A DNA stretch of 64,000 nucleotides from Patescibacteria group bacterium (GCA_041650995.1 JBAZJZ010000001.1:299302-363301); one strand, 5' to 3'; shown: positions 1 through 15,720, counted from the stretch's first letter. A program made the numbers and translations. Notes: a model not told the origin generated them from the letters alone.

Positions 1-349
1 TTTGTTTATAAGTTTGTTCGGCAAAAACGGGTTTAACCAATCCGGATCTCACCAAAAAATTTCCCTCTATCTCCTCAGCCTGCTTATGCAAATCCATCAG
101 CAAATCGTAAACTTTTTTTCCCTTTTCTCTTACTACCTTCATTTGGTCGAGCATCTGTTCTGTGGTGTAGTTTTTATAGCCGTACATTGATAATCGAACA
201 TTTTCTTCCTGAAAGTTTAGATATTCGTTGTACAAAGATACGGACTGCTTATCAAAATTTTTTGTTTCTTTTGTTAAATTTTTCCAGGCAAAAAATGAAG
301 CTCCTGCGATCACCAAGATTATCATGATAAAAACAATTATTTTTTTCAT
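1..349 (-). CDS. hypothetical membrane-anchored protein, 3'-truncated at window edge
   Basis: Open minus-strand frame from ATG at 349-347 running off coordinate 1 (MKKIIVFIMIILVIAGASFFAWKNL...); N-terminal hydrophobic helix; not in ORF track because it lacks a stop inside the window. Confidence 0.35.
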   Translation of the reverse strand, partial: MKKIIVFIMIILVIAGASFFAWKNLTKETKNFDKQSVSLYNEYLNFQEENVRLSMYGYKNYTTEQMLDQMKVVREKGKKVYDLLMDLHKQAEEIEGNFLVRSGLVKPVFAEQTYKQ

Positions 350-425
350 AAATTTAATATTATTCTTTAGTTCTATAATTTTATTATCTCATTATCTTGT
401 CATCTGGTCAAAATAAAGGTTTCTT

Positions 426-456
426 TGGCTTCGGGGGTGGGATTCTTTCCGAACCC
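426..456. repeat. partial copy of tRNA-Asn 3' end (distal att-like repeat); a shorter echo catggctccg at 487-496
   Basis: 19/20 identity to 12485-12504, followed by gaacccc after a 5-nt insertion. Confidence 0.65.
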
Positions 457-549
457 CAACAATGAAAAAACGAGTATCTAGTGACACTCATTTTTTCATG
501 GCTCCGAGCTGTGAGAGAACTTAGAACTATCATTTTAAGCGGTTGGAAG

Positions 550-612
550 TCCTACGAACTGGACGCGGCCGTGGATATGCTGGAAGGAAAGTTCCCACTA
601 AACTACTAATTC
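550..612. repeat. 63-bp direct repeat copy A (pairs with 1053-1115)
   Basis: tcctacgaactggacgcGgccgtGgatatgctggaaggaaagttcccactAaactaCtaattc; 59/63 identical to copy B; flanks the 108-aa membrane protein gene. Confidence 0.8.
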
Positions 613-649
613 GATAAATTCCCTAAAAACTGGCGAGGAAATGAGAAAA

Positions 650-976
650 TTACTTTTTATACCCAACTACTAAATATAAAATTCCCGGAATAAGGGGTGT
701 AAGCAAATTAACGCTGAAGTTTGCGTCCGTTAAAAGTCCGACAACAAAACCGATTATTATAGGAATGATCACAAGAAATCCTCCTGCCTTGGGATATTTC
801 CAACCCAAAACCAAGCCGATAAAGACCAGTGGCATCATGGCCAGCGCGACATTTTCCCATAATGAATAATCCGGCTTGGCAAACGGCAAAGGATTGCCGT
901 AGCCGAAATAAAACGGCAAGGTAAAGATTAAAATACACAATGCAAGTATTCTGGCAACCCATTTTATTGCTTTCAT
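650..976 (-). CDS. small polytopic membrane protein (108 aa), unknown function
   Basis: ORF track; about four hydrophobic segments; bracketed by the 63-bp direct repeats. Confidence 0.5.
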   Translation of the reverse strand: MKAIKWVARILALCILIFTLPFYFGYGNPLPFAKPDYSLWENVALAMMPLVFIGLVLGWKYPKAGGFLVIIPIIIGFVVGLLTDANFSVNLLTPLIPGILYLVVGYKK

Positions 977-1052
977 ATTTTTATTGTTAGTTTAATTATT
1001 TTAAATTCCATCTATATTATAACAGGAATCGTTTTTATATGATATATGGCGC

Positions 1053-1115
1053 TCCTACGAACTGGACGCAGCCGTAGATATGCTGGAAGGAAAGTTCCCA
1101 CTGAACTATTAATTC
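1053..1115. repeat. 63-bp direct repeat copy B
   Basis: See copy A; it overlaps the stop codon of the 198-aa gene. Confidence 0.8.
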
Positions 1116-1705
1116 TTATGACGTTCTATCTCACGCGAAATTTTCTCTACCCCTTTATTGATCCCTTCAATATTTTTTGCCATCTCGTAAATTGGTGGCG
1201 TACCAAGCTGCCGTTCAACTAAACTCTTAAAACCCATAAGGTATTTATCGTTATAAGTATGTTCAAGGGAGTGATCACTATATTCCAACGAGATGGTCAC
1301 ATCTTTTTTCTGCAGGTCGTCTACTCTACCTACCAAAGAGAGTAAGGGAATTTTTATAGTTTGTTGAGGAGCGAGGGTGGGAAGACCGTTTTTTATAATT
1401 TCGATCTCGTTAAGATTTTCCTTCTCATTAAAAAGGGTCAAATTTCCGTCCACAATAAAGGAAATATTTCGAGCGATTCCGTTCCCGTAGTTACCGATCA
1501 CTAACTCTATCAAATTCAGCCAATCTTCCCTTTGAGCAATAAAAACTGCTATCCGAGGACGTCTATTTTCCTCCTCAGTTTTAGACATCAGCTGAACTGT
1601 GCGTTTCGTTTGCCATGCATAATAGGCCGTTATAACCACTAGCAGTAAAGTAGCAACTGCCTGAACAAAACCGCTATTATTATTTAACCAATTGACTATT
1701 TGCAT
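1109..1705 (-). CDS. hypothetical protein with N-terminal transmembrane anchor (198 aa)
   Basis: ORF track; N-terminal hydrophobic helix (AVATLLLVVITAYYAW); starts 5 bp after the 1261-aa ORF, so probably co-transcribed. Confidence 0.55.
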   Translation of the reverse strand: MQIVNWLNNNSGFVQAVATLLLVVITAYYAWQTKRTVQLMSKTEEENRRPRIAVFIAQREDWLNLIELVIGNYGNGIARNISFIVDGNLTLFNEKENLNEIEIIKNGLPTLAPQQTIKIPLLSLVGRVDDLQKKDVTISLEYSDHSLEHTYNDKYLMGFKSLVERQLGTPPIYEMAKNIEGINKGVEKISREIERHKN

Positions 1706-1709
1706 AAAA

Positions 1710-4700
1710 TTAATCCCAACGTAAATCTGTTAAATCTGATTCGATATCATGACCTTTAGCTTCGTTTTCGTATGACTCAGAAATAGACTTAAGCAATGCT
1801 CCAGTTCTTGGCCATCTATTTTTTACAGAATCACTCATAGCCTTATATCTTTGAGATAATTCACGCTCCTGCTTTCCTCCATCCATTAATCCGCGAGAAG
1901 TGACTCCTCGGCTATTATATATTTCAACTTGAACATGTTCGTCAATCGTCTTACTATTGAGCTTCTCTATAAGGTTTCTTACGGCTGTATGAGGCCATAC
2001 TCCATCTGGATCGCTGGGTGCATGGGCTAGTATAAAGCCTATCTGTAAATCGCCACCGATTGTGTGATTTGTTTCGGCACATTTCTCCCTGGCAGATTCG
2101 ACCCACTCAGTCAATTCTTTTTCATCGACACTTCCGTCACTTTTTACGCCCGGCAATAGATACCAAGAGTCTAGTGCTTCGCGGGCAACACGTGCTCGTC
2201 TTTCAAGTAATATATCATCCACTTTTTCTTTTTCCGGATCGGGCGCACGATCATCTCGCCTGTAAATAAATGAAATTAATTGGGCAAAAAAACCTGGGTC
2301 TTTTTGTAATAATCTATGAATCGCAGTAGATGATGAAGTATATCGTTTTAAATCGTCAAAAAGAGCAGCGAAAGGCCATTCTAATTTAACCATTTCTTCC
2401 ATGGAGAGATCATCATTTTTATAGAGCTGATCGAAAACATGACCCAAATGATATTCCTCCATTACACCTGCTTTTAACTTTTTATCCTCAAGCTTTAAAA
2501 TCTCTTCGAGTAATCGTTTAAGTAATATACTTGGAAGTAATAACTTGGGATCGCCCGCAATCCGTAATGCCACCTCTGGCCGTTTTACATCGAGTAGTTT
2601 TTCAATAGCAATAGGTGCTTCCTCGCTTTTGTCAGCCCTAGAATAACCGCTTGCAATTTTCCAATAAGCCTCCTCGGCCTCTTTACCTTGGGAGTTAACG
2701 GCTGACCAGGTTTCCGCGTTTTCTGGTAATCCAAGATACAAAAGCGCACACGCTTCAGATGAATAATTCCCCTTGGTTTTTAAACGTTTGATTTGCTGCT
2801 CAACCCATCCTGGTCCAGCGACCTCAACTCTTCCAAGTGCGTATCCTCGGATAAGAAGCGATGCATCGCCAATTCGGTCGATCATCCCATCTAAATTTTT
2901 TGCATCCTCTTCCTCGTCACAGATTACTTTACCGAGCGCATGACCAAGAACTCCTACGTATTGGATCGTTCCAGCATATTCGATAATTCGCTCTAAGGAT
3001 GCCTTGTCGAGTACCTCACGAGCCACTTTTTCTCGACTCGCATTTATAGTGGTATCCTTTGCGTCATATCCTTTTGGCTCCCCCTCGGGTAATCGTGGCC
3101 ATGGATCACTTAAAAGCCAGCCAACACGGTCCAGTATGTCTTCGGGTTGGAATTTTTCAAGCACTCGATATAGAGCAGGGACTTGTTTTTTTCTTTCATC
3201 ATCTCCATAGCTATTGACCCAATTACACGCCTCTCTAATACATTGGAGCAACCTAATTTTTTCTTCCCTTGAAAATGAATTAATATCGGCTTCTTCGAGT
3301 GTATTTAAAAGTTTTTCCCTGATTTCTAAAGGTAGTCGCGTAAATTCGTCGACGGATGAAATAAGATTCTCTCTTGAACATGCTAAATCGGTAAGTTTCG
3401 GTATTAATCCAGCCACATACTTCTGATGAGTCTCATTGCCTTCTGGCTCAAGTCCACGGCGATTGCCACCCATATCGCGCCAGCGAAACCGGTGTGCTTC
3501 GCTCATAGAACCATCCCCAAAATAATGCTGAGCGAATTTCCAAACAGTCTGCGAATCTTTAACAGTTATTGTGTCCCATGTAGCCAAACGTTCTTCTGGT
3601 GTTGCATACGTTTGTGGAAGCCCAGGAACAAAAATATCTTTCAAACTATTTATGGCTCGATTATTCCAGGTGCCGCCCTTATCAATTCTGGCTAGATCAA
3701 ATAACAAATTCACTGCGCGAAAAAAATATTCTGAGCTCCATGCCATACCCTCTAATGCCCAAAGTAAGCCAGAATGTTTACAGTCACCAAATATACCTCC
3801 CTCGTCAGTCATTAATTCCTGAAAAAGAGCTGGAAATTTTTTTATTTGTTGTTCTGTGGCCTCCATAAAATCATCTGGGGCAGCCTCAGCAAGAAGTGGA
3901 GTGACGTCTTTCAAAGATGCCCAAGTCTCCCATTTATCTGCATTAGCAAAAACTTCTTTGACTACTTGATTAGCAAAGGTTTGTGTAGATGAAATATGCG
4001 AGGAACGATTTCCATATACCGCAATTAGGACTAATGATTCCACTATACCGGTTCTAAGCCATTCTGAGTAAGGGTTTGATTTACCGTAGATTCCCGCTGC
4101 CCATCGTTTATCAGCAGACAATTCATATTTTGGGTCTGTCTTAGTAAGAACTGAAAGGATCGCTCGTTCAAATAGCTTCAAATCAGCTTCAGTCAAATGC
4201 TGTGCGAGCATAAACCATGCATCCAGTGGAGATTTAAGCATCCAAATGCTCCCGACTTTACGTATTGGAGCGTCATCAGTTGAAAGAAATGGTTTTAATT
4301 TTTCAATAAATTTATCGTGCGATTCTCCTGATAAAAGCTCAATAACTTGTCTATCTCCGTCCTTGCGTTCGTCCCAAGAACCAACAAATAAAACAGGCAA
4401 TAAAACCCTGGCTGAGGTTTCTTCCGCCCAGGTTGGGGCCTTTGCACTGGATAAAAATAGATGCCGACGCAGCACCGGAATACTTCTGCCCATATCACGT
4501 GCTATACGTTGAGCCTCTACTTCAGATAGACCATTTTTATTTAAATTCTTCTCAATTATTTCGCGTCTAGGACGGGATAATTCAAAAAGATTGCTTCGAA
4601 AATCGATTGATTTAGAATCAGCGCTAAGAAAAACATAATGACCTTTTTCAACTGCAAAACCTGCTGCTTCCCGGCACTCTGCCGGAGCGGCTATAATAAG

Positions 4701-5495
4701 AGAATTCTGGAAAGTAGTAGCACAAGACCTTAGCTGGTTAATGTTTTCAACTAATACGCAACGAGACAGGGCTCGTATTTTTTCGTTTTCAGGAAGGTTT
4801 GCAATCGCACTATACAAGAATGCAAATGGTTCATCGGGAGAATCTCCGCGGACCTCAAGAATCGAAGGACCTTTGGCTATCCATTGCTGAATCCTTTCCA
4901 TATCTGAAAGGCGGCCGCCAATAACAATCTCCGTTGTCATTTTAGGTTTTGTTGCAGCTGACCATTCTTCCCAAAAACCTTCTATATCACGAATGTTATC
5001 TGATAAATTCTTAATTTGTCTGCCCAACCATAGAGCCACGGCTGGAGCTAAATCAAGCCATTGCTCAATAGCATCGGCAGCAATTACTCTGACATCTTTC
5101 CAAGCGGCAGTGGCTCTTTTTTCGTTTTGCCATTTTACTCTACCAGGCCAAGCTCTGGGAGTAACAAAAACAAAACTGGTATCTTTCTGGGTAAACCCTA
5201 AAGGATCGGCAGTGCGTTTTAAGTAATCCTCTTCTGCTTTTTTACCTGGCGAAGCTTCTGTTCCGATCTCCCAAGCAGAACTTCCTGTCGGGAAAAGAGT
5301 AGAAGCTACGGGTGTTTTTAAACGACCATCCCATCCGGGATTTGCAACGCTGTCACCACTAGGAAACTCAATTTCTTCAATGGTTGGAGCAGTAGCAAAA
5401 ACAAGACGGCGGATAAGTTCCGGCAACGTCTGAGCACAATGTCGTTGATTGCTAGTTATCCAATTTTTAATATCTCCTGCTGTTATCCACTTCAT
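1710..5495 (-). CDS. large uncharacterised protein (1261 aa); island cargo, possible defence/abortive-infection component
   Basis: Single uninterrupted 3.8-kb ORF, Trp-rich, no clear P-loop apart from a weak AAGIYGKS; no family recognised by eye. Confidence 0.7.
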   Translation of the reverse strand: MKWITAGDIKNWITSNQRHCAQTLPELIRRLVFATAPTIEEIEFPSGDSVANPGWDGRLKTPVASTLFPTGSSAWEIGTEASPGKKAEEDYLKRTADPLGFTQKDTSFVFVTPRAWPGRVKWQNEKRATAAWKDVRVIAADAIEQWLDLAPAVALWLGRQIKNLSDNIRDIEGFWEEWSAATKPKMTTEIVIGGRLSDMERIQQWIAKGPSILEVRGDSPDEPFAFLYSAIANLPENEKIRALSRCVLVENINQLRSCATTFQNSLIIAAPAECREAAGFAVEKGHYVFLSADSKSIDFRSNLFELSRPRREIIEKNLNKNGLSEVEAQRIARDMGRSIPVLRRHLFLSSAKAPTWAEETSARVLLPVLFVGSWDERKDGDRQVIELLSGESHDKFIEKLKPFLSTDDAPIRKVGSIWMLKSPLDAWFMLAQHLTEADLKLFERAILSVLTKTDPKYELSADKRWAAGIYGKSNPYSEWLRTGIVESLVLIAVYGNRSSHISSTQTFANQVVKEVFANADKWETWASLKDVTPLLAEAAPDDFMEATEQQIKKFPALFQELMTDEGGIFGDCKHSGLLWALEGMAWSSEYFFRAVNLLFDLARIDKGGTWNNRAINSLKDIFVPGLPQTYATPEERLATWDTITVKDSQTVWKFAQHYFGDGSMSEAHRFRWRDMGGNRRGLEPEGNETHQKYVAGLIPKLTDLACSRENLISSVDEFTRLPLEIREKLLNTLEEADINSFSREEKIRLLQCIREACNWVNSYGDDERKKQVPALYRVLEKFQPEDILDRVGWLLSDPWPRLPEGEPKGYDAKDTTINASREKVAREVLDKASLERIIEYAGTIQYVGVLGHALGKVICDEEEDAKNLDGMIDRIGDASLLIRGYALGRVEVAGPGWVEQQIKRLKTKGNYSSEACALLYLGLPENAETWSAVNSQGKEAEEAYWKIASGYSRADKSEEAPIAIEKLLDVKRPEVALRIAGDPKLLLPSILLKRLLEEILKLEDKKLKAGVMEEYHLGHVFDQLYKNDDLSMEEMVKLEWPFAALFDDLKRYTSSSTAIHRLLQKDPGFFAQLISFIYRRDDRAPDPEKEKVDDILLERRARVAREALDSWYLLPGVKSDGSVDEKELTEWVESAREKCAETNHTIGGDLQIGFILAHAPSDPDGVWPHTAVRNLIEKLNSKTIDEHVQVEIYNSRGVTSRGLMDGGKQERELSQRYKAMSDSVKNRWPRTGALLKSISESYENEAKGHDIESDLTDLRWD

Positions 5496-5496
5496 A

Positions 5497-5512
5497 AATT
5501 ATTTAAATAATT
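5497..5512. promoter_or_regulatory. 16-bp perfect palindrome AATTATTTAAATAATT in the divergent promoter region between the 1261-aa ORF and the LexA-MTase gene; candidate operator
   Basis: Exact dyad symmetry, read directly. Confidence 0.4.
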
Positions 5513-5596
5513 ATTCACAATAGAGGGTATTCCATTTTCGTAAGATTTTCGGTATACTATAAATATATCACTTAGTTTTAAAAACATCAATCCATT

Positions 5597-7195
5597 ATGC
5601 CTATACCAATTACAAAAAGACAAAAAGAAGTTTTAGACTTCATTAAGGGGTTCGTAAAAAAGAAGAAATATCCCCCAACTCTAGAGGAAATATGTAGTGG
5701 GCTTAAGCTTTCCGCTGTATCTACTGTTCATCAACACATTGAAGCTCTTGCCGAAAAAGGATACCTAAAAAAGGCCGGCAATAATGCCCGGTCAATTGAT
5801 GTGAGCGAACCAGAAACAATGATTAAAATTCCTCTACTTGGAACAATTGCGGCCGGAGAACCGATTGAAGCAATTCAGCAAAATGAATTTATTGCTGTAC
5901 CCAAAACAAAATTACCGGCGCATGGTGAAGTTTATGCCCTTCGAGTAATTGGCAACAGTATGATCGACGAGAATATTAACGATGGAGATATTGTCCTGGT
6001 TAAACATCAGAGTACAGCTGAAAACGGCCAAAAAATTGTCGCGCTTATAAACAATCAAGAAACTACCTTAAAAAAATTCTATAAAGAAAAGGGGCACATA
6101 CGTTTACAACCGGCAAATAAAACCATCGAACCTATTATTTTAGACAGAGGAACTCCATTGGCTATCCAGGGAATAGTTTTGGATGTAATAGAAAGTCAAC
6201 CAAGAATAGAGGTCTCAAACAAACAAGAGCCAAAAAAAGAGACTGCGCAGCAACTCCTTTCGCTATCACAAAAGAAAATTAAAATTTCTCATAAACCAGC
6301 CACAGATGCCGACGTGATACTTTTTCATGGTGACCGGCTTGATCTTATGAAAGGATTACCTGATAAATCCGTAAAACTTGTCGTCACTTCACCACCATAC
6401 AACATTGGCAAAGAATACGAAAAAAGAAAAGATTTAGATTTGTATCTGGCCGAACAAGAAGAAACTATAAAAGAAGCGATCCGTATTCTTACTGATGATG
6501 GCAGTATTTGCTGGCAGGTTGGAAATCATATCGGCAAAGACGGTGAGGTCTTTCCGCTCGATGCGCTCATTTATGCTATAGGGAAAAAACTAGGTCTTAA
6601 ATTACGGAATAGAATTATTTGGCGATTTGGGCACGGCCTACATTGTACAAAGAGGTTTTCAGGACGACACGAAACGATTGTTTGGTTTACCAAGGGCGAT
6701 AATTATACTTTCAACCTTGATCCTGTCCGCGTGCCCCAAAAGTATCCAGGCAAAAAGAATTTTAAGAAAAATGAAAAGTATGGAACCTTATCAGGCAATC
6801 CCCTAGGAAAGAACCCTGAAGATGTGTGGGATATACCAAACGTCAAAAATAATCATCCGGAAAAAACAAATCATCCATGCCAGTTTCCAATTGAGCTTAT
6901 AGAGCGTTTGATATTATCCATGACCAACCCGGGAGATGCTGTGCTTGATCCGTATTTGGGCGTAGGGAGCGCAATCTGCGCTGCAGTGATTCATAACCGC
7001 AAAGGATATGGATCGGACATTATGAAGGGGTATTTGGATACTGCTGAAGAAAGAGTCAAGGCAGCTGCAAATGGCACACTAAACCGCCGGATGATGGGAA
7101 CACCGGTTTATCAACCAACCAGCAATGTAAAGCTTGCTGAATTACCAGATGAGTTTAAGAAAGCTCGTGAGAGTCTATTTGGGCCCGGGCTTTGA
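5597..7195 (+). CDS. LexA-like repressor (HTH plus S24 autopeptidase) fused to a beta-class DNA N4-C/N6-A methyltransferase (M.BglII-like)
   Basis: N-terminal half: LexA wHTH (TLEEICSGLKLSAVSTVHQHIEALAEKGYLKK), Ala-Gly cleavage site (IAAGEPIEA), Ser nucleophile (GNSMIDENINDGDIVLV) and Lys (TLKKFY). C-terminal half: VVTSPPYNIGKEY (motif IV DPPY-type) followed by LDPYLGVGSAICAA (motif I FxGxG); this beta-class order is read as N4C/N6A. Confidence 0.8.
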   Translation: MPIPITKRQKEVLDFIKGFVKKKKYPPTLEEICSGLKLSAVSTVHQHIEALAEKGYLKKAGNNARSIDVSEPETMIKIPLLGTIAAGEPIEAIQQNEFIAVPKTKLPAHGEVYALRVIGNSMIDENINDGDIVLVKHQSTAENGQKIVALINNQETTLKKFYKEKGHIRLQPANKTIEPIILDRGTPLAIQGIVLDVIESQPRIEVSNKQEPKKETAQQLLSLSQKKIKISHKPATDADVILFHGDRLDLMKGLPDKSVKLVVTSPPYNIGKEYEKRKDLDLYLAEQEETIKEAIRILTDDGSICWQVGNHIGKDGEVFPLDALIYAIGKKLGLKLRNRIIWRFGHGLHCTKRFSGRHETIVWFTKGDNYTFNLDPVRVPQKYPGKKNFKKNEKYGTLSGNPLGKNPEDVWDIPNVKNNHPEKTNHPCQFPIELIERLILSMTNPGDAVLDPYLGVGSAICAAVIHNRKGYGSDIMKGYLDTAEERVKAAANGTLNRRMMGTPVYQPTSNVKLAELPDEFKKARESLFGPGL

Positions 7196-7849
7196 CCCGT
7201 TGTATTTGCGAAGTTTTATTTTTGCTAGAGCCTCTGTTTTATTTGTTTTGAAAAGCTCTCTAAGAGTTTGGGATTTTGTTTTTTCTTCATCGGTCAAGCC
7301 GATACTTAAAACGAATACCGGAATATCAATATTACTTTCTCCTCGATTCTCAAAATCAACAAGTAGCTGTTCAAATGAGGAAACGCCGGTAGACATCAAT
7401 TTTACTAGCTCACTACTAGGCACGATCTCTATTCCGCATTCGATATATTTGAGATTTTTGAAAATGATCATCTTAGAAAAAATGTCATAACCCATAAAGG
7501 CATATTTTCCAAACTGAATTTCCAACCCAACTTTATTTTTTATTCCATCCATTTCACGAAATCTGCCTTTACCAAAAGCATGACGTGGCTCAACGAAATC
7601 CCGTTTCTTACCGTCTTTTGATTTCTCGGTCCAACCCTTTTTGTGAAGCTCATGTTTTAAATAATCATTCATGTCCACCGGCGAGAAGAGAACTTGTCCT
7701 TTTTTAGTTTTTTCTTTGCTCTCCTTCGTTAAACAAATAGTGCTATCCAAGGATTTTATTGCATTAAAAACTTCCTGAAGTTCTTTCGGGTGTTTTTCTT
7801 TGAGAAATTTCTCTCCGCCCTTAAATGAATAAGTATTGATAACCTTCAT
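7175..7849 (-). CDS. type II restriction endonuclease, BglII/BstYI family
   Basis: 224 aa. By-eye similarity to BglII: FSPVDMNDYLKHELHKKGW versus FDPVGTNQYIKDELVPKHW, and GLEIQFGKYAFMGYDIF versus LVEVQFSNYPFLLNNTV. Tail-to-tail with the MTase, overlapping it by 21 bp. Confidence 0.65.
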   Translation of the reverse strand: MKVINTYSFKGGEKFLKEKHPKELQEVFNAIKSLDSTICLTKESKEKTKKGQVLFSPVDMNDYLKHELHKKGWTEKSKDGKKRDFVEPRHAFGKGRFREMDGIKNKVGLEIQFGKYAFMGYDIFSKMIIFKNLKYIECGIEIVPSSELVKLMSTGVSSFEQLLVDFENRGESNIDIPVFVLSIGLTDEEKTKSQTLRELFKTNKTEALAKIKLRKYNGSKPGPK

Positions 7850-7965
7850 AAACCTATCTAAATTAGAAATCCCTTATAACTACAGGATATCAGAGAAATT
7901 GAAAAAAATCTATAACTAAGTTTTTGTCAGCTTTTGCCAGAATAATTTATCCACAGGGGGCCCTA

Positions 7966-8124
7966 TTGACGGCGGCCTTTATGGTCCGCTATTATGGACC
8001 TGTAAGATAGGAGTTTGCCTGACGGCGTTCCGATTTATCGGAACTAAGTGAGACGAGGCTACGACTTCTGTCATTAAGCACTACGTGTTTTTTGCTTGAT
8101 GATTAGAAGTGGTAGCCTCTTTTT
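7966..8124 (+). ncRNA. candidate small RNA: sigma70-like promoter (TTGACG-18-TATTAT, 7966-7995) to an intrinsic terminator (gaggctacgacttctg...tagaagtggtagcctc plus T5, 8055-8124)
   Basis: Promoter-like hexamers and a long GC-rich hairpin followed by a T-run in an otherwise AT-rich intergenic region; internal hairpin gttccgatttatcggaac. Confidence 0.3.
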
Positions 8125-8230
8125 ATTTATATAAATTAATTTAATACCCTTCTGAGGCAATCGCCTGGATAGGACATACATTTTGATAAGACGAGATTAG
8201 AGGCTAGCTCCCAGTTGGGGCCAGCCTTTT

Positions 8231-8431
8231 ATGTTGCCCCAAGAAGCAGTCCAACAATTCAAAGAATTATACGAAAAACGCTACGGCGTAAATCTCACTG
8301 ACGAGGAGGCTTCTTTGCGCGCTAACAATCTTTTTAATCTTTATAAAATCACCTATATCGGTGAACCTTCAATAAAAGACTTTAATAAAAAAGTAGTGAA
8401 AAGCCATGACCTCAAACCAAACCATAATTAG
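8231..8431 (+). CDS. hypothetical small protein (66 aa)
   Basis: ORF track only. Confidence 0.3.
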   Translation: MLPQEAVQQFKELYEKRYGVNLTDEEASLRANNLFNLYKITYIGEPSIKDFNKKVVKSHDLKPNHN

Positions 8432-8714
8432 CGAAATCCAATTCTACCCCGTTAAGCCCAAGGACGGACTCCTCGGGTTCGTTTCGTTTGTCCTGGACGG
8501 AAAATTCTGGATGGGGTCAGTGGCAGTATTCAGCAGGCCAGATGGCAATTACAGGTTGGTTTATCCGACACGTAAAGTAGCGGGTCAGAATATTAATATT
8601 TTTCATCCGATCACATATGAGGTCGGCCAACAGGTCGAAGTGGCCGTCAGTGAAAAAGTAGCTGAAATATTTAGTGAAAATTATGGACCAGACGAACCAA
8701 CAAGAAGCGAATGA
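8406..8714 (+). CDS. spoVG: SpoVG-family protein
   Basis: GFVSFVLDGKFWMGSVAVFSRPDGNYRLVYPTRKVAGQNINIFHPITYEVGQQVEVAV matches the SpoVG core (ASITIDNEFVVHDLRVIDG...RTPDGEFRDIAHPIN). Confidence 0.6.
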   Translation: MTSNQTIISEIQFYPVKPKDGLLGFVSFVLDGKFWMGSVAVFSRPDGNYRLVYPTRKVAGQNINIFHPITYEVGQQVEVAVSEKVAEIFSENYGPDEPTRSE

Positions 8715-9117
8715 AAAACATTTTAATTGTTTTTTCACTCCGCATAAAATTTTTGATGATGAAAAATTATGCCGGTCATTGACTCACGCCGAACACGGTT
8801 TTTTTACAGCTTTATGCCATTTACATAACCGTTGTGCTAACAAAGATGGATGGTTCTGGCATGTAGATCATTCTTTTACAGATAAAAACGGAAAGAAACT
8901 GGGATTTGCCACCATGGGTTTTGGCAGTTCAACCTGTAAGAGAGCGCGAATTAAATTAGTCAGACTTAAATTGATAGAAATCAAACCGTATATTACCGAT
9001 GAAAGTACTTGGCCGGCTACAATGTATCGCATTAATCCAAAACTCCTCTACGGTACCGGAGACCAAATTGGTCCACGGTCGAAGACCAATTTGAACTCTG
9101 GCCCGGGACCACCATGA
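8674..9117 (+). CDS. hypothetical protein (147 aa), island cargo
   Basis: ORF track; no recognisable motif. Confidence 0.45.
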   Translation: MKIMDQTNQQEANEKHFNCFFTPHKIFDDEKLCRSLTHAEHGFFTALCHLHNRCANKDGWFWHVDHSFTDKNGKKLGFATMGFGSSTCKRARIKLVRLKLIEIKPYITDESTWPATMYRINPKLLYGTGDQIGPRSKTNLNSGPGPP

Positions 9118-9192
9118 GCCCCTAAGTAATAAAGAGTAAATAATAAAAAATAATTAAGATTGCCTAATTAAGGCGAGCAAGCTCGTAAAAAT

Positions 9193-9813
9193 ATGAATCA
9201 ACAACCTACAACTTCAAAGATGCCAAAAGAAACCGAGCAGCAATACACGGCTTGGCTTTTGTATTGCGAATACGGGAGCATCGACAAACTGCTTCAGGCT
9301 TGGCAAGGAATCGAGAGGCGGACAAAGGCGGATGAAAGGCGGACAGAATTTGAAGCTCTAATGGAGAAATTAGGTAATCCTCCGGCGCGAACCACCATAG
9401 GAGAATGGTCAATAAAATATCAATGGATAAAAAGAAAAGAAATGAAGATAGCGGAAGATTTGGAAGCTCTACGAGAAAAGACGAAAAAAATAAAGCGAGA
9501 AAAGCTCCATAGGATCGCTGAAATATTTGACCGAATTACTAACAAAATTCTCAAAGGGCTTCGAGGAAATGAAGAACCAACTATTTCAGAATGGAAAATG
9601 GTCTGGGACATGTTTCAGATCGAGCTTGGCAAACCTACCACCAGAGGCGAATTAAAGACAGAACCAGAACAACGACCACTGACTCCCGAAGAAAAAGAGC
9701 ACGGAAAGAGACTTCATAAAGCTGTGGAATGGTATTTGGAAAACCAGCTGGATGATGAAGACAAATGGCAAGAATTCCAAAAGCTCATTGAGAAAAATAA
9801 GAAAATGAGATAA
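9193..9813 (+). CDS. hypothetical protein (206 aa), charged/coiled-coil
   Basis: ORF track. Confidence 0.5.
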   Translation: MNQQPTTSKMPKETEQQYTAWLLYCEYGSIDKLLQAWQGIERRTKADERRTEFEALMEKLGNPPARTTIGEWSIKYQWIKRKEMKIAEDLEALREKTKKIKREKLHRIAEIFDRITNKILKGLRGNEEPTISEWKMVWDMFQIELGKPTTRGELKTEPEQRPLTPEEKEHGKRLHKAVEWYLENQLDDEDKWQEFQKLIEKNKKMR

Positions 9814-9821
9814 AATAGAAT

Positions 9822-9966
9822 TGCGTCCTACAAGTTTGAATTAAAGCACAGGGTAATTGCTTCTTTTGAAGCCCAATTGCGGGCTGAAAGGGGCGACTAT
9901 CCTCCACAATTGGTTGCCTTGTGCAATTCAATCTTGTGGGACGCAGGCTCTGGTCGTCCCTTTTTG
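9822..9966 (+). promoter_or_regulatory. structured leader with mutually exclusive anti-terminator (9822-9835 pairing 9934-9947) and terminator (gggacgcaggctctggtcgtccc plus T5, 9938-9966); attenuator/riboswitch-like
   Basis: A 12-bp long-range stem gcgtcctacaag/cttgtgggacgc shares gggacgc with the terminator 5' arm; it encloses a ~100-nt GC-richer domain with an internal ccaattg/caattgg stem. Confidence 0.35.
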
Positions 9967-10041
9967 TTTTGTTTGACTTCCTAAAACCTTCGGCCCATGT
10001 TGTGTGTAGAAAGGCCGAAATCAATATTAAGTAAATAATTA

Positions 10042-10914
10042 ATGAACAAACATATGAAAAATAAAGCCATAATTTACGCCGTAATCGCCATTGTAGCGGT
10101 CTTTGGGGCAGGTTACGGAGTTTATCACCTTCTAAGCAACGTACCGCAGAATAAAGGCAACGTTGATGTAGCCTCAATAACGACATTCGAGGCATGCAAC
10201 AAAGCAGGCTTCCCGACCATCAAACATTATCCCGACCAGTGCCAGACTCCTGACGGGAGAATCTTCGTCAATGAAAATCCTCCGAGCGAAGCCGAGCTCG
10301 CCAAAGCAGAATCTGCGATCAAGACATTTATGGGAGAGCCGAATCTGGAGCTTGAATACATAACGCAAAAAAGACATCCCGCAAACTTCTCAGTCTTAAG
10401 CAACGTCAAACAAAATGACGGCGGGTTCACAGCCGACACTCCCGAAGAATGGTATCGCCCAGTCTACATTTTCCAGCAAAAGAATTATATCAATGACCGA
10501 TGTGAAGTCTACCAATACCAAGTGACGATCAAAACAAATCAGGTCGTGGAGATTGGAATTGTCTACCCGATAGAACGCAATGCCACAACGCCAGGCAATT
10601 GCCCTGATAATGGTTCGCTTGAGACTCCGTTAAAGACCAAAGCCGAGATTGAGCAGATTGCATTTGCTTATTTCGGCAGAGACCCGGAACACACAAAATT
10701 CATGCTCCGATCAGACATCCAGCCTCAATATATTCCAAGCAAGGCAGGCGCAGCGAATCCCGCACAAAACGAATGGCGATGGGAAGATAAAAATGTCTCG
10801 CTCCCAGATGGACTAACAGGCGATCCCTGGCAACATCCAATCGCCAGAATAATAATATCGAGTGGCGGTAAGCTGATTTATTACCTGAACACCACCGACT
10901 TATTTAAAAACTAA
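10042..10914 (+). CDS. secreted/membrane-anchored hypothetical protein (290 aa)
   Basis: N-terminal signal anchor (AIIYAVIAIVAVFGAGYGVY). Confidence 0.55.
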   Translation: MNKHMKNKAIIYAVIAIVAVFGAGYGVYHLLSNVPQNKGNVDVASITTFEACNKAGFPTIKHYPDQCQTPDGRIFVNENPPSEAELAKAESAIKTFMGEPNLELEYITQKRHPANFSVLSNVKQNDGGFTADTPEEWYRPVYIFQQKNYINDRCEVYQYQVTIKTNQVVEIGIVYPIERNATTPGNCPDNGSLETPLKTKAEIEQIAFAYFGRDPEHTKFMLRSDIQPQYIPSKAGAANPAQNEWRWEDKNVSLPDGLTGDPWQHPIARIIISSGGKLIYYLNTTDLFKN

Positions 10915-10915
10915 T

Positions 10916-12526
10916 ATGAACTCAGAGGAATTAACAAAAATAACATATTTCCTCTACGCCAGAAAATCATCTGAACAAGAAGACAGACAAGTACTCTCAA
11001 TTGATTCTCAGAAAAGTGAGCTTGAATCATTAGCTAAAAAAGAAAGACTAAATATTGTAAGTCGGTTTGAGGAATCATACTCGGCCAAAGGCCCGGGCAG
11101 AAAAATCTTTAATGAAATAATCGCCCGGATAGAAAAAGGTGAAGCCAATGCTATTCTTGCGTGGCATCCAAACAGGCTCTCAAGAAACTCGGTTGATACC
11201 GGATATTTGATCTATCTCATGGATCAAAACAAATTGCTTGAAATCCGGACTCCGGGCCAGACATTCAAAAATACTCCCAACGATAAATTCCTTCTTAACC
11301 TGCTTTGCAGCCAGGCCAAACTTGAAAACGACAACAAAGGCATAGATGTGAAGCGCGGGTTGAGGCGCAAAGTAGAATTGGGATGGCATCCCGGTCCGGC
11401 TCCGATCGGCTATTTAAACACGCCCGACAAAGAAAAAGGATTTAAGACAATCCGTAAAGATTCAAAAATGTTCCCGATTATCAGGAAAATGTTTGATATG
11501 GTCTTGAGCGGGAGCTATACCGCACCAAGAGTGCATGAGATCGCAGTCAATCAATGGGGTTTAAAGAAATTGGCCCGAAGCGGCTTCTATCGCACGCTTT
11601 ATAATCCCTTCTATTATGGCTGGTTTGAATGGCCAAGAGGTAGTGGTAACTGGCATAAAGGTAAACACGAACCGATGATCACGCGCGAAGAATTCGATCG
11701 CGTCCAACAGCTACTCCATCCTGGTCAAAAACCAAAGCCCGAAAAGCACGTCTTCGCTTATACCGGCATGATCCGCTGTGGCGAGTGTGGCTGTATGGTT
11801 ACGGCCGAAAATAAAGTTAAAAGAAATAAGCAGGGTGGCGAACATTATTATACTTATTACCACTGCACGAAGCGCAAAGGCCCGTGCAGTCAGCAATGCA
11901 TTGAAATAAAGGATTTAGAAAAGCAGATAGCAAAAACTCTGACCGGCATTGAAGTACCGCCAGAATTCCACAGCTGGGCTATGACATGGCTCCGGGCCGA
12001 GAACGGCAGAGAATCAAGCGACAGAAATAACATTCTTAACAATCTACAAAAGAATTACGAGGTGTGTGTCCGTAAGCTGGACACGCTGATTGATATGCGC
12101 GCTGCCGGGGAGATCACTGAAGAAGAATTTAACAAAAAGAAATCGACGGTGACCCAGGAAAAAGCCAGACTCCAGGAACTTTTAAATGACACTGACAACC
12201 GCGTAGACAGCTGGCTCGATGTTGCAAACCGGGTCATTAGATTCTCTGAAGACGCAAAAGAAGCATTCGAAAACAAAGGACTTCAGGCCAAGAAAATCAT
12301 TCTGGCCGGCCTCGGTTCGAACCTCCTCTTAAAAGACAAAATACTCGAGATTGACGTACAAAATGCACTCCTGCCCATGCAACTCGTCTCTTCCGGGGCG
12401 AAAATAAAAACAAACCGGTTAGAACCGGTCAAAGTGAGCCTAAATAAAGAGAAAAGCAGAGCTTTTGGCTCTGCAAATCCCACATGGCTCCGGGGGTGGG
12501 ATTCGAACCCACGACCAATCGGTTAA
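10916..12526 (+). CDS. large serine recombinase (resolvase N-domain, recombinase domain, Zn ribbon); putative island integrase
   Basis: YARKSSEQEDRQ...SIDSQ catalytic Ser region, NRLSRN, CGECGC...YYHCTKRKGPC zinc ribbon. The last ~14 codons are read through the tRNA-Asn 3' end. Confidence 0.85.
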   Translation: MNSEELTKITYFLYARKSSEQEDRQVLSIDSQKSELESLAKKERLNIVSRFEESYSAKGPGRKIFNEIIARIEKGEANAILAWHPNRLSRNSVDTGYLIYLMDQNKLLEIRTPGQTFKNTPNDKFLLNLLCSQAKLENDNKGIDVKRGLRRKVELGWHPGPAPIGYLNTPDKEKGFKTIRKDSKMFPIIRKMFDMVLSGSYTAPRVHEIAVNQWGLKKLARSGFYRTLYNPFYYGWFEWPRGSGNWHKGKHEPMITREEFDRVQQLLHPGQKPKPEKHVFAYTGMIRCGECGCMVTAENKVKRNKQGGEHYYTYYHCTKRKGPCSQQCIEIKDLEKQIAKTLTGIEVPPEFHSWAMTWLRAENGRESSDRNNILNNLQKNYEVCVRKLDTLIDMRAAGEITEEEFNKKKSTVTQEKARLQELLNDTDNRVDSWLDVANRVIRFSEDAKEAFENKGLQAKKIILAGLGSNLLLKDKILEIDVQNALLPMQLVSSGAKIKTNRLEPVKVSLNKEKSRAFGSANPTWLRGWDSNPRPIG

Positions 12527-12559
12527 CAGCCGAACGCTCTGCCACTGAGCTACCCCGGA
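12485..12559 (-). tRNA. tRNA-Asn (anticodon GTT), CCA encoded
   Basis: Reverse complement tccggggtagctcagtggcagagcgttcggctGTTaaccgattggtcgtgggttcgaatcccacccccggagcca gives a cloverleaf with a GTT anticodon loop. Confidence 0.9.
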
Positions 12560-12601
12560 ATATCTTAAAAATTACCAAAATTACTTTGGTTTTATACTTT
12601 A

Positions 12602-13837
12602 TCAATAATCTCTTAATTTTTCAATACCCTTAAATCCCTGCACTTTTTCAAGCGCCTTAGCTTCAATTTGACGGATACGTTCGCGCGTTACGCCAAACTC
12701 TTCACCGACTTCTTCCAAGGTATGCGAAACTCCATCAGAAAGTCCGAAACGCATTTCCAAAATTTTTTGTTCGCGAGGCAACAAATCTTTAATTGCTTCT
12801 TTAACATATTCGCGCAAAAGTTGCAGCGCCGCGGCGCGGTCCGGAGAAACATTTTTAAAATCTTCTATAAAATCTTCAAGCACACTGTCTTCATCTTCAT
12901 CACCAACCGAAGTATCAAGAGAAACCGTGTCTTGCGAAATCTGAATTAAATTTCTGATTTTTTCCACATCCTCGCCCATTTCCGAAGCAATTTCTTCCGG
13001 CAATGGTTCGCGTCCTAAATCCTGAATTAATTGCCGCGCCACCTGCTGGTAACGATTAATTGTTTCCACCATATGCACCGGAATTCTGATAGTTCTTGAC
13101 TGATCAGCGAGGGCGCGCGTGACAGCCTGACGGATCCACCAGGTCGCGTAAGTAGAAAATTTATAACCCTTACTCGGATCAAATTTTTCCACGGCACGCA
13201 TCAAACCGATATTCCCTTCCTGGATTAAATCTGCTAAAGATAAATTTTTTCCCACGAATTTTTTGGCAATAGAAACAACAAGACGCAAATTGGCGACCAT
13301 CAACCTCTGTGCCGCTTCCTGATCACCCTGGTCTTTTCGGCGAGCCAACGCCATTTCTTCTTCGGTTGTTAAAAGGGGGACCTTGCCGATTTCGCGGAGA
13401 TACATCTGAATAGAATCAGTAGAAATATCACCGAGGTCTAGCCGCTTTTTTTCTTTACTGACTCCAATGTCTGCTAAAAGTTTTTTTCTTTCTTCAACGC
13501 GTCCCAAAATATCGCTCTTTACTTCGACCACGGAAATTCCGACCTCATCTACTTTATCTAAAAACTCTTCGTATTTTTTAATATAGTTTTCCAAATCAGA
13601 AAAAGTAAAAAGTATTTCCGAGTCAGTTAAAAAACCTCTCATGCGACCCTTGTCCAGGAGAGTTTTTGTCGCTACTTCGCTTGGCGGAAGAATTTTTGGT
13701 GTGAGAGCTCTCGCTGCTTTTTTCGCTTTATTTTTTTCCCCGCGTTTAACAATCTTTTTCTTCCCGACGCGCTTTTTAACTTTAATTTTTTTAGCGCTGC
13801 TTTTCTTCTTCGGCCGACGCGCTTTTTTAGTTTTCAT
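12602..13837 (-). CDS. rpoD: RNA polymerase sigma-70 factor RpoD
   Basis: [13 protein letters not shown] and [13 protein letters not shown] regions; highly basic N-terminal extension. Confidence 0.9.
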
Positions 13838-13924
13838 TTATTTTAAATATTCAAAAATTTTAATCAAATCCTTAACCGCCAAAGACAAATTACAAAACTC
13901 CCCTCCCTATTTTATACTTCTACT

Positions 13925-15718
13925 TCAAATATTTATTAGCTGATTGAATTCTTCCGCCAATTCTTTTATTCGGCCAAGTTCTTTATTTTCTTCCGCTTTT
14001 TTCATTTCAGCTTGCAGCCGCCGGCGTTCGTTTTTAATATAGTTTTCACGCAATGATTTTGCGTTCTGCAAAATTTCATTACCAATTTCTTCTTCGCTAA
14101 ATTCGGCAAAATCTTTTTCCGCTAAAAGAAATAAGCTCGCAATATATTTTTTTTCATTTGGATCATCCGAAATACTAACCATTACGTTCTCTAAATCTTC
14201 TTTATCCACAGACTTATTATAGTATAAAATTAAGTTTTTGTAAATTTCCCCGAAAGGCTCTTCCGGAAACATAAACGGCTCAAGATAAGGAACAGCCAGG
14301 GATAATTGATTGGGATATTTAAAAACCAAAGCAATAAATCTCTCAGCTAAAAGAGGGCGGCGTTTTTTTGCGGCGGCGGTAATGATTTTTTCTCCGGGCA
14401 ACGACGGACTTGCCGCGATTTTTTCGTGAGGCAGGGATTCACGTAAAATCTGCTCCGGCACCCCTAAAATATTAGCTAATTTTTCCAGATAAAAATTTTG
14501 TTCAACTTTATCAGGAATTTTTATCAATTCCGCAAGTAGTGTTTTTGCCGCCTTCTTTTTGTCTTCCACCTTACGCAAATCAAGTCCGTTCAGAGTTTTT
14601 TTAATATAATAATCCATGAAGGCCATGGAGTTTGTAATCGCCTCGCGCCAAAGATTTGGATCTTTTTTTATATAATCATCGGGATCTTTTCCAATTTCCG
14701 GCGTTAACATTATAACTTTTATATTAATCCCTTCTTTCAGGGCGACGTCAATTCCCCGCATCGCCGCCGTATTACCCGCTAAATCCGCGTCAAAAGAAAT
14801 CGCGAGGTTTGGCGAATATCTTTTCAATAAATTTATTTGTTCTACGGTCATGGCCGTGCCGGAAGACGCTACAACATTTTGCACACCCGCCTGATGCGAA
14901 GCAATTACATCCATATTACCCTCAACCATCACTGCCAAGTTTTCTTTTTTAATTTCCTGTTTGGCAAAATCTAAACCATAAATCACCCGACTTTTATCAT
15001 AAACCAAAGTCTGCGGCGTGTTCACATATTTCCCGCCGGCGTTTTCCTTTTTCTCCGCCTCGGGCATCAAACGCGCCGTAAATCCGACAACGTGGCCGTG
15101 GATGTCGCGGATGGGAAACATTATTCTTCCCCGAAAACGATCGTAATATCCCGCGCCCCGCTCTTTTTTTACGGAAAGCCCGGCCAAAAAAATGTCTTTT
15201 TCAGAAAAACCTTTTCCGCATAAAAATTTTATCGCGCTATCCCAGGAATTCGGCCCGAAACCAAGAAAAAATTTCTCTACTGTTTCTTCAGTCAATCGAC
15301 GTTTTTCAAAAAGATAATTTCTCGCCGCTTCAGCTTCGGGCATTTTTAATAAATTATAATGATAAAATCTCGCTGCCGCTTCCAAAACATCTAACAATTT
15401 TGTTTTTTGGCTTGAAAGACTTTTATCTTCATAGCGAAGCGTTACTCCGGCGCGCTTGGCCAAAATTTTTAAAGCTTCGGGAAATTCAATATTTTCAATC
15501 TTCTGGACAAAACTTATTACGTCGCCGCCCTCACCGCAGCCAAAACAATGCCAGATTTGTTTGTCGCGAGAAACCATAAAAGAAGGTGTCTTCTCGTTAT
15601 GAAACGGGCAAAGACCCTTCCAATTACCACCCGCCTGTTTCATATTGGACACATACTCGCCAATAACTTCCACAATGTCCAGGCGGTTTTTAATTTCCTC
15701 AACTTGCGAATCGGGCAT
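13925..15718 (-). CDS. dnaG: DNA primase DnaG
   Basis: CHC2 zinc finger CPFHNEKTPSF...HCFGCG; TOPRIM region; classic dnaG-rpoD arrangement. Confidence 0.9.
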   Translation of the reverse strand: MPDSQVEEIKNRLDIVEVIGEYVSNMKQAGGNWKGLCPFHNEKTPSFMVSRDKQIWHCFGCGEGGDVISFVQKIENIEFPEALKILAKRAGVTLRYEDKSLSSQKTKLLDVLEAAARFYHYNLLKMPEAEAARNYLFEKRRLTEETVEKFFLGFGPNSWDSAIKFLCGKGFSEKDIFLAGLSVKKERGAGYYDRFRGRIMFPIRDIHGHVVGFTARLMPEAEKKENAGGKYVNTPQTLVYDKSRVIYGLDFAKQEIKKENLAVMVEGNMDVIASHQAGVQNVVASSGTAMTVEQINLLKRYSPNLAISFDADLAGNTAAMRGIDVALKEGINIKVIMLTPEIGKDPDDYIKKDPNLWREAITNSMAFMDYYIKKTLNGLDLRKVEDKKKAAKTLLAELIKIPDKVEQNFYLEKLANILGVPEQILRESLPHEKIAASPSLPGEKIITAAAKKRRPLLAERFIALVFKYPNQLSLAVPYLEPFMFPEEPFGEIYKNLILYYNKSVDKEDLENVMVSISDDPNEKKYIASLFLLAEKDFAEFSEEEIGNEILQNAKSLRENYIKNERRRLQAEMKKAEENKELGRIKELAEEFNQLINI

Positions 15719-15720
15719 AA

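Follow-up and report, generated by a model that had tools for sequence, protein, structure and literature searches.

A 64,000-nucleotide (nt) stretch from a Patescibacteria group bacterium (GCA_041650995.1, JBAZJZ010000001.1, positions 299302-363301), here called the window and numbered from its first letter, carries near its left end a run of accessory genes that stops at an intact tRNA-Asn gene (Table 1). The gene next to the tRNA encodes a 536-amino-acid (aa) large serine recombinase (LSR), whose reading frame enters the tRNA gene from the opposite strand. Upstream of it are five small open reading frames (ORFs), a predicted restriction-modification (R-M) pair, a 1261-aa protein with a 198-aa partner and a small membrane protein, and on the side of the tRNA away from these genes rpoD and dnaG adjoin it. 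We interpret positions 497-12492 as an integrated mobile element of the candidate phyla radiation (CPR), probably inserted by its own LSR at the extreme 3' end of the host's tRNA-Asn gene. A first-pass annotation of the same DNA had likewise proposed a site-specifically integrated island at tRNA-Asn with the LSR as integrase, and the contents it listed were recovered: the tRNA-proximal LSR with its frame entering the tRNA, the R-M pair, the 1261-aa ORF and a SpoVG-like ORF. What does not hold is its use of a 20-bp tRNA-derived direct repeat as boundary and recombination site, since the junction core lies 54 bp further inward.

Table 1. Features of the tRNA-Asn island and its junctions, in window coordinates.
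Feature	Position	Strand	Basis
Degenerate tRNA-Asn 3'-end copy (3' strand of the acceptor stem and T-arm, 5-nt T-loop insertion)	426-457	-	
Strong hairpin beside the far junction	455-505	-	-22.9 kcal/mol, z = -6.3
Far junction core (B-O-P'), CATGGCTCCG	497-506	+	Homology with L211 and L095 starts here; leftward sequence unrelated
P' arm and displaced LSR C-terminal tail, coding for WLRAVRELRTIILSGWKSYELDAAVDMLEGKFPLNY and a stop	499-608	+	
DUF7670 small membrane protein	650-976	-	Pfam PF24709, E = 1e-13
Truncated second copy of the tail end (WRSYELDAAVDMLEGKFPLNY and a stop), inner far-junction remnant	1047-1111	+	
198-aa protein, cargo	1109-1705	-	phrog_9607, E = 1.4e-10
1261-aa protein, cargo	1710-5495	-	phrog_18693 over full length, E = 4e-174
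LexA-fused N6/N4 methyltransferase	5597-7195	+	Pfam, TIGR00498, PADLOC MTase_II
BglII-family type II restriction endonuclease	7175-7849	-	Pfam PF09195, PADLOC REase_II
Promoter-like site and candidate small RNA	7966-8133	+	Conservation in 12 elements, RNAalifold
Core module, five ORFs of 66, 102 (SpoVG-like), 147, 206 and 290 aa	8231-10914	+	Order kept in relatives
Large serine recombinase (LSR), 536 aa	10916-12526	+	Pfam domains; 42-nt overlap with the tRNA
Pair of terminator-like hairpins of the tRNA strand, antisense to the end of the LSR frame	12456-12474, 12413-12430	-	Terminator scan
tRNA-proximal junction core (P-O-B'), CATGGCTCCG	12483-12492	+	Homology to relatives in other hosts ends at 12492
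tRNA-Asn(GTT), intact	12485-12559	-	ARAGORN; Rfam 70.9 bits

The nearest RpoD sequences among species-representative genomes come from Patescibacteria at 64-66% identity, thus the host is a CPR bacterium without a close sequenced relative in that collection. In addition, exact-protein look-ups with the LSR, the DUF7670 protein and the methylase gave no matches. Housekeeping genes beyond the island, as the first-pass annotation described them, are present on the right side in the form of rpoD and dnaG; they are demonstrated on that side alone, since the left flank amounts to only 425 nt of the window. Base composition does not distinguish the island from its surroundings.

By its sequence, the recombinase falls within the definition of a large serine recombinase. 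It contains a catalytic Resolvase domain (PF00239, E = 1e-20, residues 12-154), and its matches to Recombinase (PF07508, 30.3 bits) and Zn_ribbon_recom (PF13408, 31.5 bits) both exceed the cut-offs; at residues 372-441, where a coiled coil is in question, there is a SHOCT match of 33 bits together with a weak match to DUF4164. The ORF is full length and has every family-invariant residue, and the YxRKSSExxDRQ block is invariant in an alignment of 19 family sequences. The protein belongs with the integrases of phrog_95 in PHROGs (E = 1e-62), and its closest relatives in the PDB are the SPbeta and A118 integrases, albeit at low similarity (E = 5e-11). No ORF within positions 1-16000 has a tyrosine (phage-integrase family) recombinase domain, leaving the serine enzyme as the sole recombinase.

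To place this enzyme in a family, a protein search was made with the LSR, which returned more than 7,000 homologues; genomic context was fetched for about 90 of them (loci are labelled L and a number), and 79 loci had enough sequence for a tRNA count. The LSR frame ends within the 3' end of an opposite-strand tRNA gene in 52 of these 79 (Asn 32, Gln 11, Glu 4, His 3, Ser 2). At least six further close relatives (L089, L091, L092, L095, L099 and L101) have a match to the 3' half of tRNA-Asn after the LSR. An element attachment site (attP) in the anticodon loop was considered for these six and rejected: at both loci scanned with Rfam (L092 11618-11807, L095 11118-11400) the anticodon loop is interrupted by a group I intron, thus these are intron-containing tRNA-Asn genes, and the other four follow the same sequence pattern. 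Intron-bearing tRNA-Asn genes in several CPR hosts go undetected by ARAGORN.

LSRs that are 92% identical to the one in the window adjoin tRNA-Asn in differing contexts, namely rpoD-dnaG, Avd/DUF456 and ATP synthase. The 3' end of the LSR gene (...GCAAATCCCAyATGGCTCC) is kept among them, and the tRNA bodies after these conserved ends differ along their whole length, the acceptor and T stems showing compensatory changes. A conserved LSR end followed by a tRNA that varies with the host indicates that the tRNA is the host's and that the DNA of the element reaches to the very end of the tRNA. One may argue that the LSR and the tRNA are merely neighbours inherited vertically, or that the tRNA is carried by the element, with no targeting of a host tRNA in either case, and the extreme conservation of the LSR-tRNA overlap would suit such a pair. 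However, the identity of the partner tRNA switches among LSR subclades across five amino-acid specificities, its sequence follows the host and not the LSR, the flanking host genes differ, the far junctions share a core, and a distant relative (L027) has tRNA-Asn without an LSR-sized ORF after it, all of which makes this explanation scarcely credible.

Close relatives of the LSR are absent from IMG/VR, which contains only distant short forms of about 430 aa that do not abut tRNAs and lack the C-terminal extension of about 100 aa; one exception is a 549-aa relative adjoining tRNA-His. Serine recombinases of CPR bacteria that target tRNAs are not described in the literature searched, and the first-pass annotation had noted that mobile defence islands are poorly described in small-genome bacteria of this composition. 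Such elements are essentially undescribed for CPR bacteria, and the one in the window apparently belongs to a very large and undescribed group of serine recombinases that target tRNA ends. One related LSR element (L139) contains a LOOT RNA (RF03000, 73.6 bits) at 6294-6412 on the minus strand.

The junctions of the element were placed by comparison with the approximately 90 related LSR loci. A 10-bp core, CATGGCTCCG, is identical at both ends (10/10) over a core-to-core distance of 11,986 bp, where chance predicts 0.03 copies per window. A short echo of the tRNA end had been noticed on the left by the first-pass annotation; it exists and matches the core perfectly, but at 497-506 and not at 487-496. 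On the tRNA side, homology between the window and L168 (P0006; LSR protein 97% identical) ends exactly at 12492, after CATGGCTCCG, and past the core the LSR frame of L168 continues as ...WLRMINELRTYILSH to a stop codon, not into a tRNA. On the far side, L211, which has 92% DNA identity to window 1053-3209, carries a complete version of this continuation, or tail, adjoining the gene of the 198-aa protein and preceded by GCTCCG, a terminator and an unrelated flank gene; homology with the window starts exactly at GCTCCG. Both junctions are seen in six elements, in which the shared core is 5-10 bp of tRNA terminus, and in all of them the order is host flank (hairpin and T-run), core and tail on the far side, and LSR end, core and tRNA on the near side. 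A third copy, CATGGCTCCGGG, is present at 11985-11996 (+) inside the LSR gene, where it codes for TWLRA in the conserved WAMxWLRxEN motif; it may reflect the same amino acids and codons as the core at the attachment sites, and nothing more.

Besides the cores, the arms of the two junctions show a regular geometry. The P' arm contains a TT[AC]GAAC(C) motif that resembles the tRNA T-loop TTCGAACC of the B' arm (12502-12509) and lies exactly 5 bp farther from the core in 6/6 pairs; the window version, TTAGAACT at 521-528, is the predicted zinc-ribbon-domain (ZD) motif of the P' arm. In serine integrases, the ZD motif occupies positions 16-24 of the attP half-site and is shifted 5 bp centreward in the bacterial attachment site, attB (Rutherford et al., PMC3783163), and the offset in all six pairs fits this rule. 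From the spacing we infer that the central dinucleotide lies at about 12488-12490 and about 502-504, within the shared core.

The 20-bp repeat proposed as island boundary by the first-pass annotation, TGGCTTCGGGGGTGGGATTC at 426-445 against 12485-12504 (19/20, same orientation), is real and far above chance, since 100 shuffles of the window gave 0 matches to it even with 3 mismatches permitted. Similarity to the tRNA end extends beyond the 20 bp, past a 5-nt T-loop insertion and into the 5' strand of the T-stem (GGGTTCGGAAAGAATCCCACCCCCGAAGCCA in the copy and GGGTTCGAATCCCACCCCCGGAGCCA in the tRNA, both given on the tRNA strand), and Rfam does not call the 426-457 copy a tRNA at E <= 0.1. If this repeat bounded the island, recombination would have taken place inside the duplicated tRNA segment and the joined site would read ...AAAGGTTTCTTTGGCTCCGGGGGTGGGATTCGAACC...; every accessory gene would be enclosed, and the identity stops exactly at the centre of the T-loop, a plausible crossover point whose recurrence as a breakpoint in the tRNA 3'-end copies of L090, L112 and L139 adds to the appeal of the model. 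Nevertheless, it is very unlikely. Strand exchange by serine recombinases takes place at a 2-bp core, and these enzymes neither need nor create 20-bp repeats (PMC3783163, together with established knowledge), and a far junction with an LSR-frame tail is found at 497-506. In particular, a T-loop crossover for the LSR was rejected because the acceptor- and T-stem bases adjoining the LSR are host-specific, and so not element-borne, and because homology across the family ends at GGCTCCG, not at the T-loop. Moreover, the far junctions of L211, L095 and L155 have no tRNA copy close by, thus the 426-445 repeat is not part of the LSR junction.

The copy at 426-445, outside the far junction and with an identity to the tRNA that stops in the T-loop, is perhaps a scar left by another, older insertion that had targeted the T-loop. 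At L090 (12252-12705), a tRNA-end copy and the intact tRNA enclose a small GIY-YIG nuclease gene, an arrangement that suggests a separate class of small T-loop insertions duplicating the tRNA end. At L112 (513-678) and L139 (1191-1335), the tRNA-end copy is paired with an inverted piece of the T-arm across an insert of 105-125 nt. The copies in L090, L112 and L139 may thus represent a second kind of small tRNA-associated insertion.

For the LSR element itself, the following mechanism is proposed. The tRNA end would serve as attB, with crossover within GGCTCC, a stretch that takes in the discriminator base together with the first CCA bases on one side and the top of the acceptor stem on the other, and the T-loop TTCGAACC would act as the ZD motif of the B' half-site. 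attP would lie inside the 3' end of the LSR frame, its P' half-site bearing the T-loop-like TTAGAAC set 5 bp farther out. The predicted junctions read ...GTGACACTCATTTTTTCATGGCTCCGGGGGTGGGATTCGAACC... for attB and ...GGCTCTGCAAATCCCACATGGCTCCGAGCTGTGAGAGAACTTAGAAC... for attP. Integration would part the LSR from its last approximately 35 codons, which would be left stranded at 499-608, and the gene would then enter the tRNA antisense, from which the last 12-14 LSR codons are read in the integrated state. The tRNA would remain intact and be served by a new intrinsic terminator, encoded antisense in the last LSR codons.

This terminator is the more proximal of the two hairpins listed in Table 1, with a 7-bp GC-rich stem followed by a T-run, and is called as a terminator by the scan; compensatory changes affect five of its seven stem pairs across ten elements. 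The fold of 12413-12474, a region that forms part of the P arm, has z = -4.6. The element is therefore predicted to supply tRNA-Asn with a new intrinsic terminator. The antisense terminator in the LSR end would thus replace the tRNA's own downstream hairpin, and the strong hairpin at 455-505 is read as that former hairpin (terminator region), now stranded on the B-arm side of attB. Flanks with a hairpin and a T-run stand at the equivalent place in L095, L112, L139, L155 and L211.

Homologues of the displaced tail directly continue the LSR frame in L168 (P0006), L090, L100, L118/L119 and L128, and occur at far junctions in L095, L112, L139, L155, L120 and L211, in the first five of these 5-10 kb upstream of the LSR. 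Between the tails of the window and L095, substitutions at codon positions 1/2/3 number 9/5/16, corresponding to 12 synonymous and 11 non-synonymous codon changes. In addition, the distal part of the tail is present twice in the window (550-612 and 1053-1115) as a 63-nt repeat of 94% identity, and its 4 differences all fall on third codon positions, as judged by eye. The third-position bias and the differences between the repeats suggest that the tail is translated in some state; any functional role for it is conjectural. Exchange of the tail on integration and its restoration on excision could provide a built-in sensor of the integration state, which may set directionality or expression.

The second tail copy also bears on the history of the island, which is a composite and not a single element, and which is decaying. 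L211 holds a full tail, the GCTCCG core and the host terminator exactly where the tail at 1047-1111 is truncated in the window, and does not have the DUF7670 segment. Thus, 507-1046, with the full tail and the DUF7670 gene, is best seen as what is left of an earlier element, and the inner junction at 1047-1111 belongs to the element carrying the present LSR. According to this reading, the oldest scar would be the 20-bp copy at 426-445, outside the element; an older element would have left the far junction and the DUF7670 gene at 497-1046, and the element with the present LSR would then have inserted on the tRNA side, its own far junction surviving in truncated form. In L120, the C-terminus of an upstream LSR reads into the tail and is followed by a second element whose LSR abuts tRNA-Asn, and further tail remnants are found in L168 and L169. 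The truncated-tail arrangement is common to L169/L170, which are 89% identical, and is thus old.

A sister strain from the same sample (L001 and L210), with an identical RpoD and 99.9-100% identity on both sides of the deletion, is without 8244-12147, a 3,904-bp deletion with 1-nt microhomology (L001 11690) that removes the core module and 410 LSR codons and keeps the R-M genes. Such a loss of the LSR by illegitimate deletion, with the R-M genes retained, would be expected of a fixed fossil, which arrived by LSR integration and is no longer mobile, its LSR a relic and the region by now an ordinary defence locus of the chromosome. This alternative concerns present activity and not origin, and it draws further on the truncated inner far junction, the lack of the native tail on the integrated LSR and the age of the arrangement in L169/L170. 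Against it stand the full-length LSR ORF, in which every family-invariant residue is kept, an outer far junction whose core and P' motif are intact, the different flanks of near-identical elements, and the breaks of related contigs at tRNA-Asn, which suggest population heterogeneity. A fossil is accordingly possible, although we find it somewhat doubtful. As for these contigs, those of the metagenome-assembled genomes with the closest RpoD end at, or no more than about 150 nt past, tRNA-Asn (L002 12331-12403, L003 20844-21068, L006 4134-4344), and the stub beyond the tRNA in L003 resembles the antisense of an LSR 3' end; this suggests that assemblies routinely break at tRNA-Asn islands.

Several points weigh against insertion of the element by its LSR at the tRNA end as set out above. 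Neither an empty attB nor an excised attP junction of the element was found: an exact-match scan of a metagenome collection did not find the left flank joined to the tRNA end, as an empty attB would have it, and one of viral contigs did not find attP as predicted by the model of the first-pass annotation; the species-representative genomes contain no close relative, hence an empty-site comparison was impossible. Polymorphism is seen only as the internal deletion of the sister strain, although the element recurs with other flanks in L211 and L169. The ORF of the left flank (2-349) has zero homologues, and the flank is not traceable. The P and B arms on the left resemble each other only in their hairpin-like character and have no sequence motif in common, the crossover dinucleotide is deduced from spacing rather than observed, and no candidate directionality factor was found among the small ORFs. 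Moreover, loci with LSR plus tail could be tandem junctions and not free attP sites, the proximal tail could be conserved as DNA, for recognition of the P' arm, and not for a function of the protein, and the truncation of the LSR's own far junction may leave the present element incapable of precise excision. We still favour insertion at the tRNA end, given the anatomy of the element, its tRNA association, the cores, the 5-bp offset, the covariation of the terminator, the strain polymorphism and the host-specific flanks. At the level of the family, sequence comparison makes the pattern of a tRNA-end target, an in-gene attP and an antisense terminator well supported.

The element consists of a conserved core and variable cargo. 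The core covers 4.6 kb, from a promoter and candidate small RNA through the five small ORFs to the LSR; its order across the family is the 66-aa ORF, a SpoVG-like or DUF5659 ORF, the 147-aa ORF, one of about 200 aa, YceG in some, one of about 300 aa and the LSR, and homologues of the core ORFs occur in the same order in L082-L102. No ORF of the module received a Pfam or PADLOC assignment, the SpoVG-like 102-aa ORF falling just below the Pfam cut-off (28.1 against 29.6 bits). The 206-aa ORF has a weak small-terminase match (E = 9e-5), and PDB sequence searches with it and the 290-aa ORF gave nothing useful. These ORFs may serve in regulation, in replication or as a directionality factor.

Upstream of the 66-aa ORF, a non-coding stretch of about 315 nt is conserved at 68-87% nucleotide identity in 12 elements. 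It contains a promoter-like site at 7966-7995 (TTGACG-18-TATTAT, promoter match 10/12) and a candidate structured small RNA of about 120 nt (approximately 8010-8130), which has a long stem and a T-run at its end and for which RNAalifold gives 30 pairs, 9 of them with compensatory changes. The candidate belongs to no Rfam family, and in an Rfam scan of 1-13000 the tRNA was the sole known RNA family matched. Directly before the ATG of the 66-aa ORF, at about 8200-8235 (+), there is a further conserved hairpin, GGCTAGCTCCCAG..TGGGGCCAGCC followed by TTTT, which by eye covaries among elements and may be a translational or attenuation structure.

The cargo upstream of the core varies between elements and includes type I, II and III-like R-M systems, a Fic protein and LexA-methylase fusions. 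In the window, the methyltransferase (N6_N4_Mtase, E = 7e-52; PADLOC MTase_II) and the endonuclease (Endonuc-BglII PF09195, E = 1.5e-18; PADLOC REase_II, E = 1e-33) are predicted to form a type II R-M pair. The methyltransferase is fused to a complete LexA, with both the DNA-binding domain and the S24 self-cleaving peptidase (TIGR00498, 183 bits, cut-off 111), which suggests R-M control responsive to DNA damage. Such fusions occur in at least five elements (that of the window and those of L086, L090, L094 and L104), the intergenic region upstream of the fusion (5496-5596) is conserved in three of the related elements, and a literature search found no description of LexA-methylase fusions. The 1261-aa protein belongs to a family of 337 homologues of about 1260 aa (1255-1279 aa, 50-93% identity) without a Pfam domain; strikingly constant in length, the family crosses phyla, with members in CPR bacteria and Margulisbacteria and on a 4.3-Mb contig. 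Its 198-aa partner accompanies it wherever seen, and the gene pair is kept in L169, L170, L210 and L211. In addition, a 23-nt inverted repeat with 96% complementarity links 9483-9505 in the 206-aa ORF with 13716-13738 in the 5' region of rpoD, and is possibly due to chance since the sequence is A/T-rich and of low complexity.

A prophage was considered and rejected. A search of PHROGs for virion structural, packaging and lysis genes gave only families of unknown function, among them phrog_18693 and phrog_9607, and the weak small-terminase match. With no virion genes and no close relatives in IMG/VR, the island is read as an integrative element that is not a virus and carries defence genes.

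CPR/Patescibacteria account for a large share of bacterial diversity and their mobile elements are barely characterised, and the locus described here belongs to a family that numbers thousands of homologues. The LSR family appears to be a main vehicle moving R-M systems between CPR organisms. Tentatively, we propose that a CPR-wide clade of LSRs reads the conserved T-loop as its attB motif, that an in-frame attP exchanges the tail, and that elements stack at the tRNA and thereby assemble defence islands. Because only the tRNA half would be sequence-specific and a terminator-like left arm is rebuilt, successive elements could insert at the same tRNA; if this is true, small-genome bacteria assemble and exchange defence islands by serial insertion at one tRNA. 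It would also extend what is known of serine integrases to tRNA targets, to the T-loop as a ZD motif and to an attP inside the integrase gene. Since the recognition sequence would be short and near-universal, with no need for long homology, these enzymes are candidate genetic tools for CPR bacteria and possibly elsewhere. A caution follows for annotation: an island need not end at the longest direct repeat derived from a tRNA.

Compared with known serine integrases, the LSR has the same layout of resolvase catalytic domain, recombinase domain and zinc ribbon, with a coiled-coil insert that is putative here, as the A118/LI integrase, SprA of SPbeta, phiC31 and Bxb1. Alike are also the short common core, the recognition motif 5 bp closer to the centre in attB, and the integrase gene at the end of the element beside the attachment site. 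For most known serine integrases, the target is a protein-coding gene or an intergenic site. In contrast to A118, SPbeta, phiC31 and Bxb1, the element in the window would use a tRNA 3' terminus as target and the T-loop as recognition motif. It further differs from serine-integrase prophages by an attP within the integrase ORF, the C-terminal extension of about 100 aa and the absence of recognisable virion genes.

The classical tRNA islands of tyrosine integrases (P4-like) resemble the element in insertion at the tRNA 3' side, a tRNA-proximal integrase, a functional tRNA that is kept, accessory or defensive cargo and tRNA-end fragments close by. Here, however, the enzyme is a serine recombinase, the core is only 5-10 bp at the very tRNA end, and the long tRNA-derived repeat, although present, is not the junction. 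Integration of SSV1 splits its integrase gene, and integration-dependent immunity in mycobacteriophages truncates the repressor; both rely on tyrosine recombinases, and in several cases the target is a tRNA gene. These systems are alike in having attP inside a gene of the element, so that integration alters the product, whereas the element described here has a serine recombinase and would exchange only the last approximately 35 codons. Finally, SCCmec with its Ccr recombinases shares LSR-mediated insertion at the 3' end of a conserved housekeeping gene and serial build-up into composite arrays bounded by short repeated cores, and NCBIfam gives the LSR a weak Ccr similarity, well below cut-offs. 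It differs in that its target is rlmH and not a tRNA, in that Ccr is often paired, and in its host lineage and cargo.

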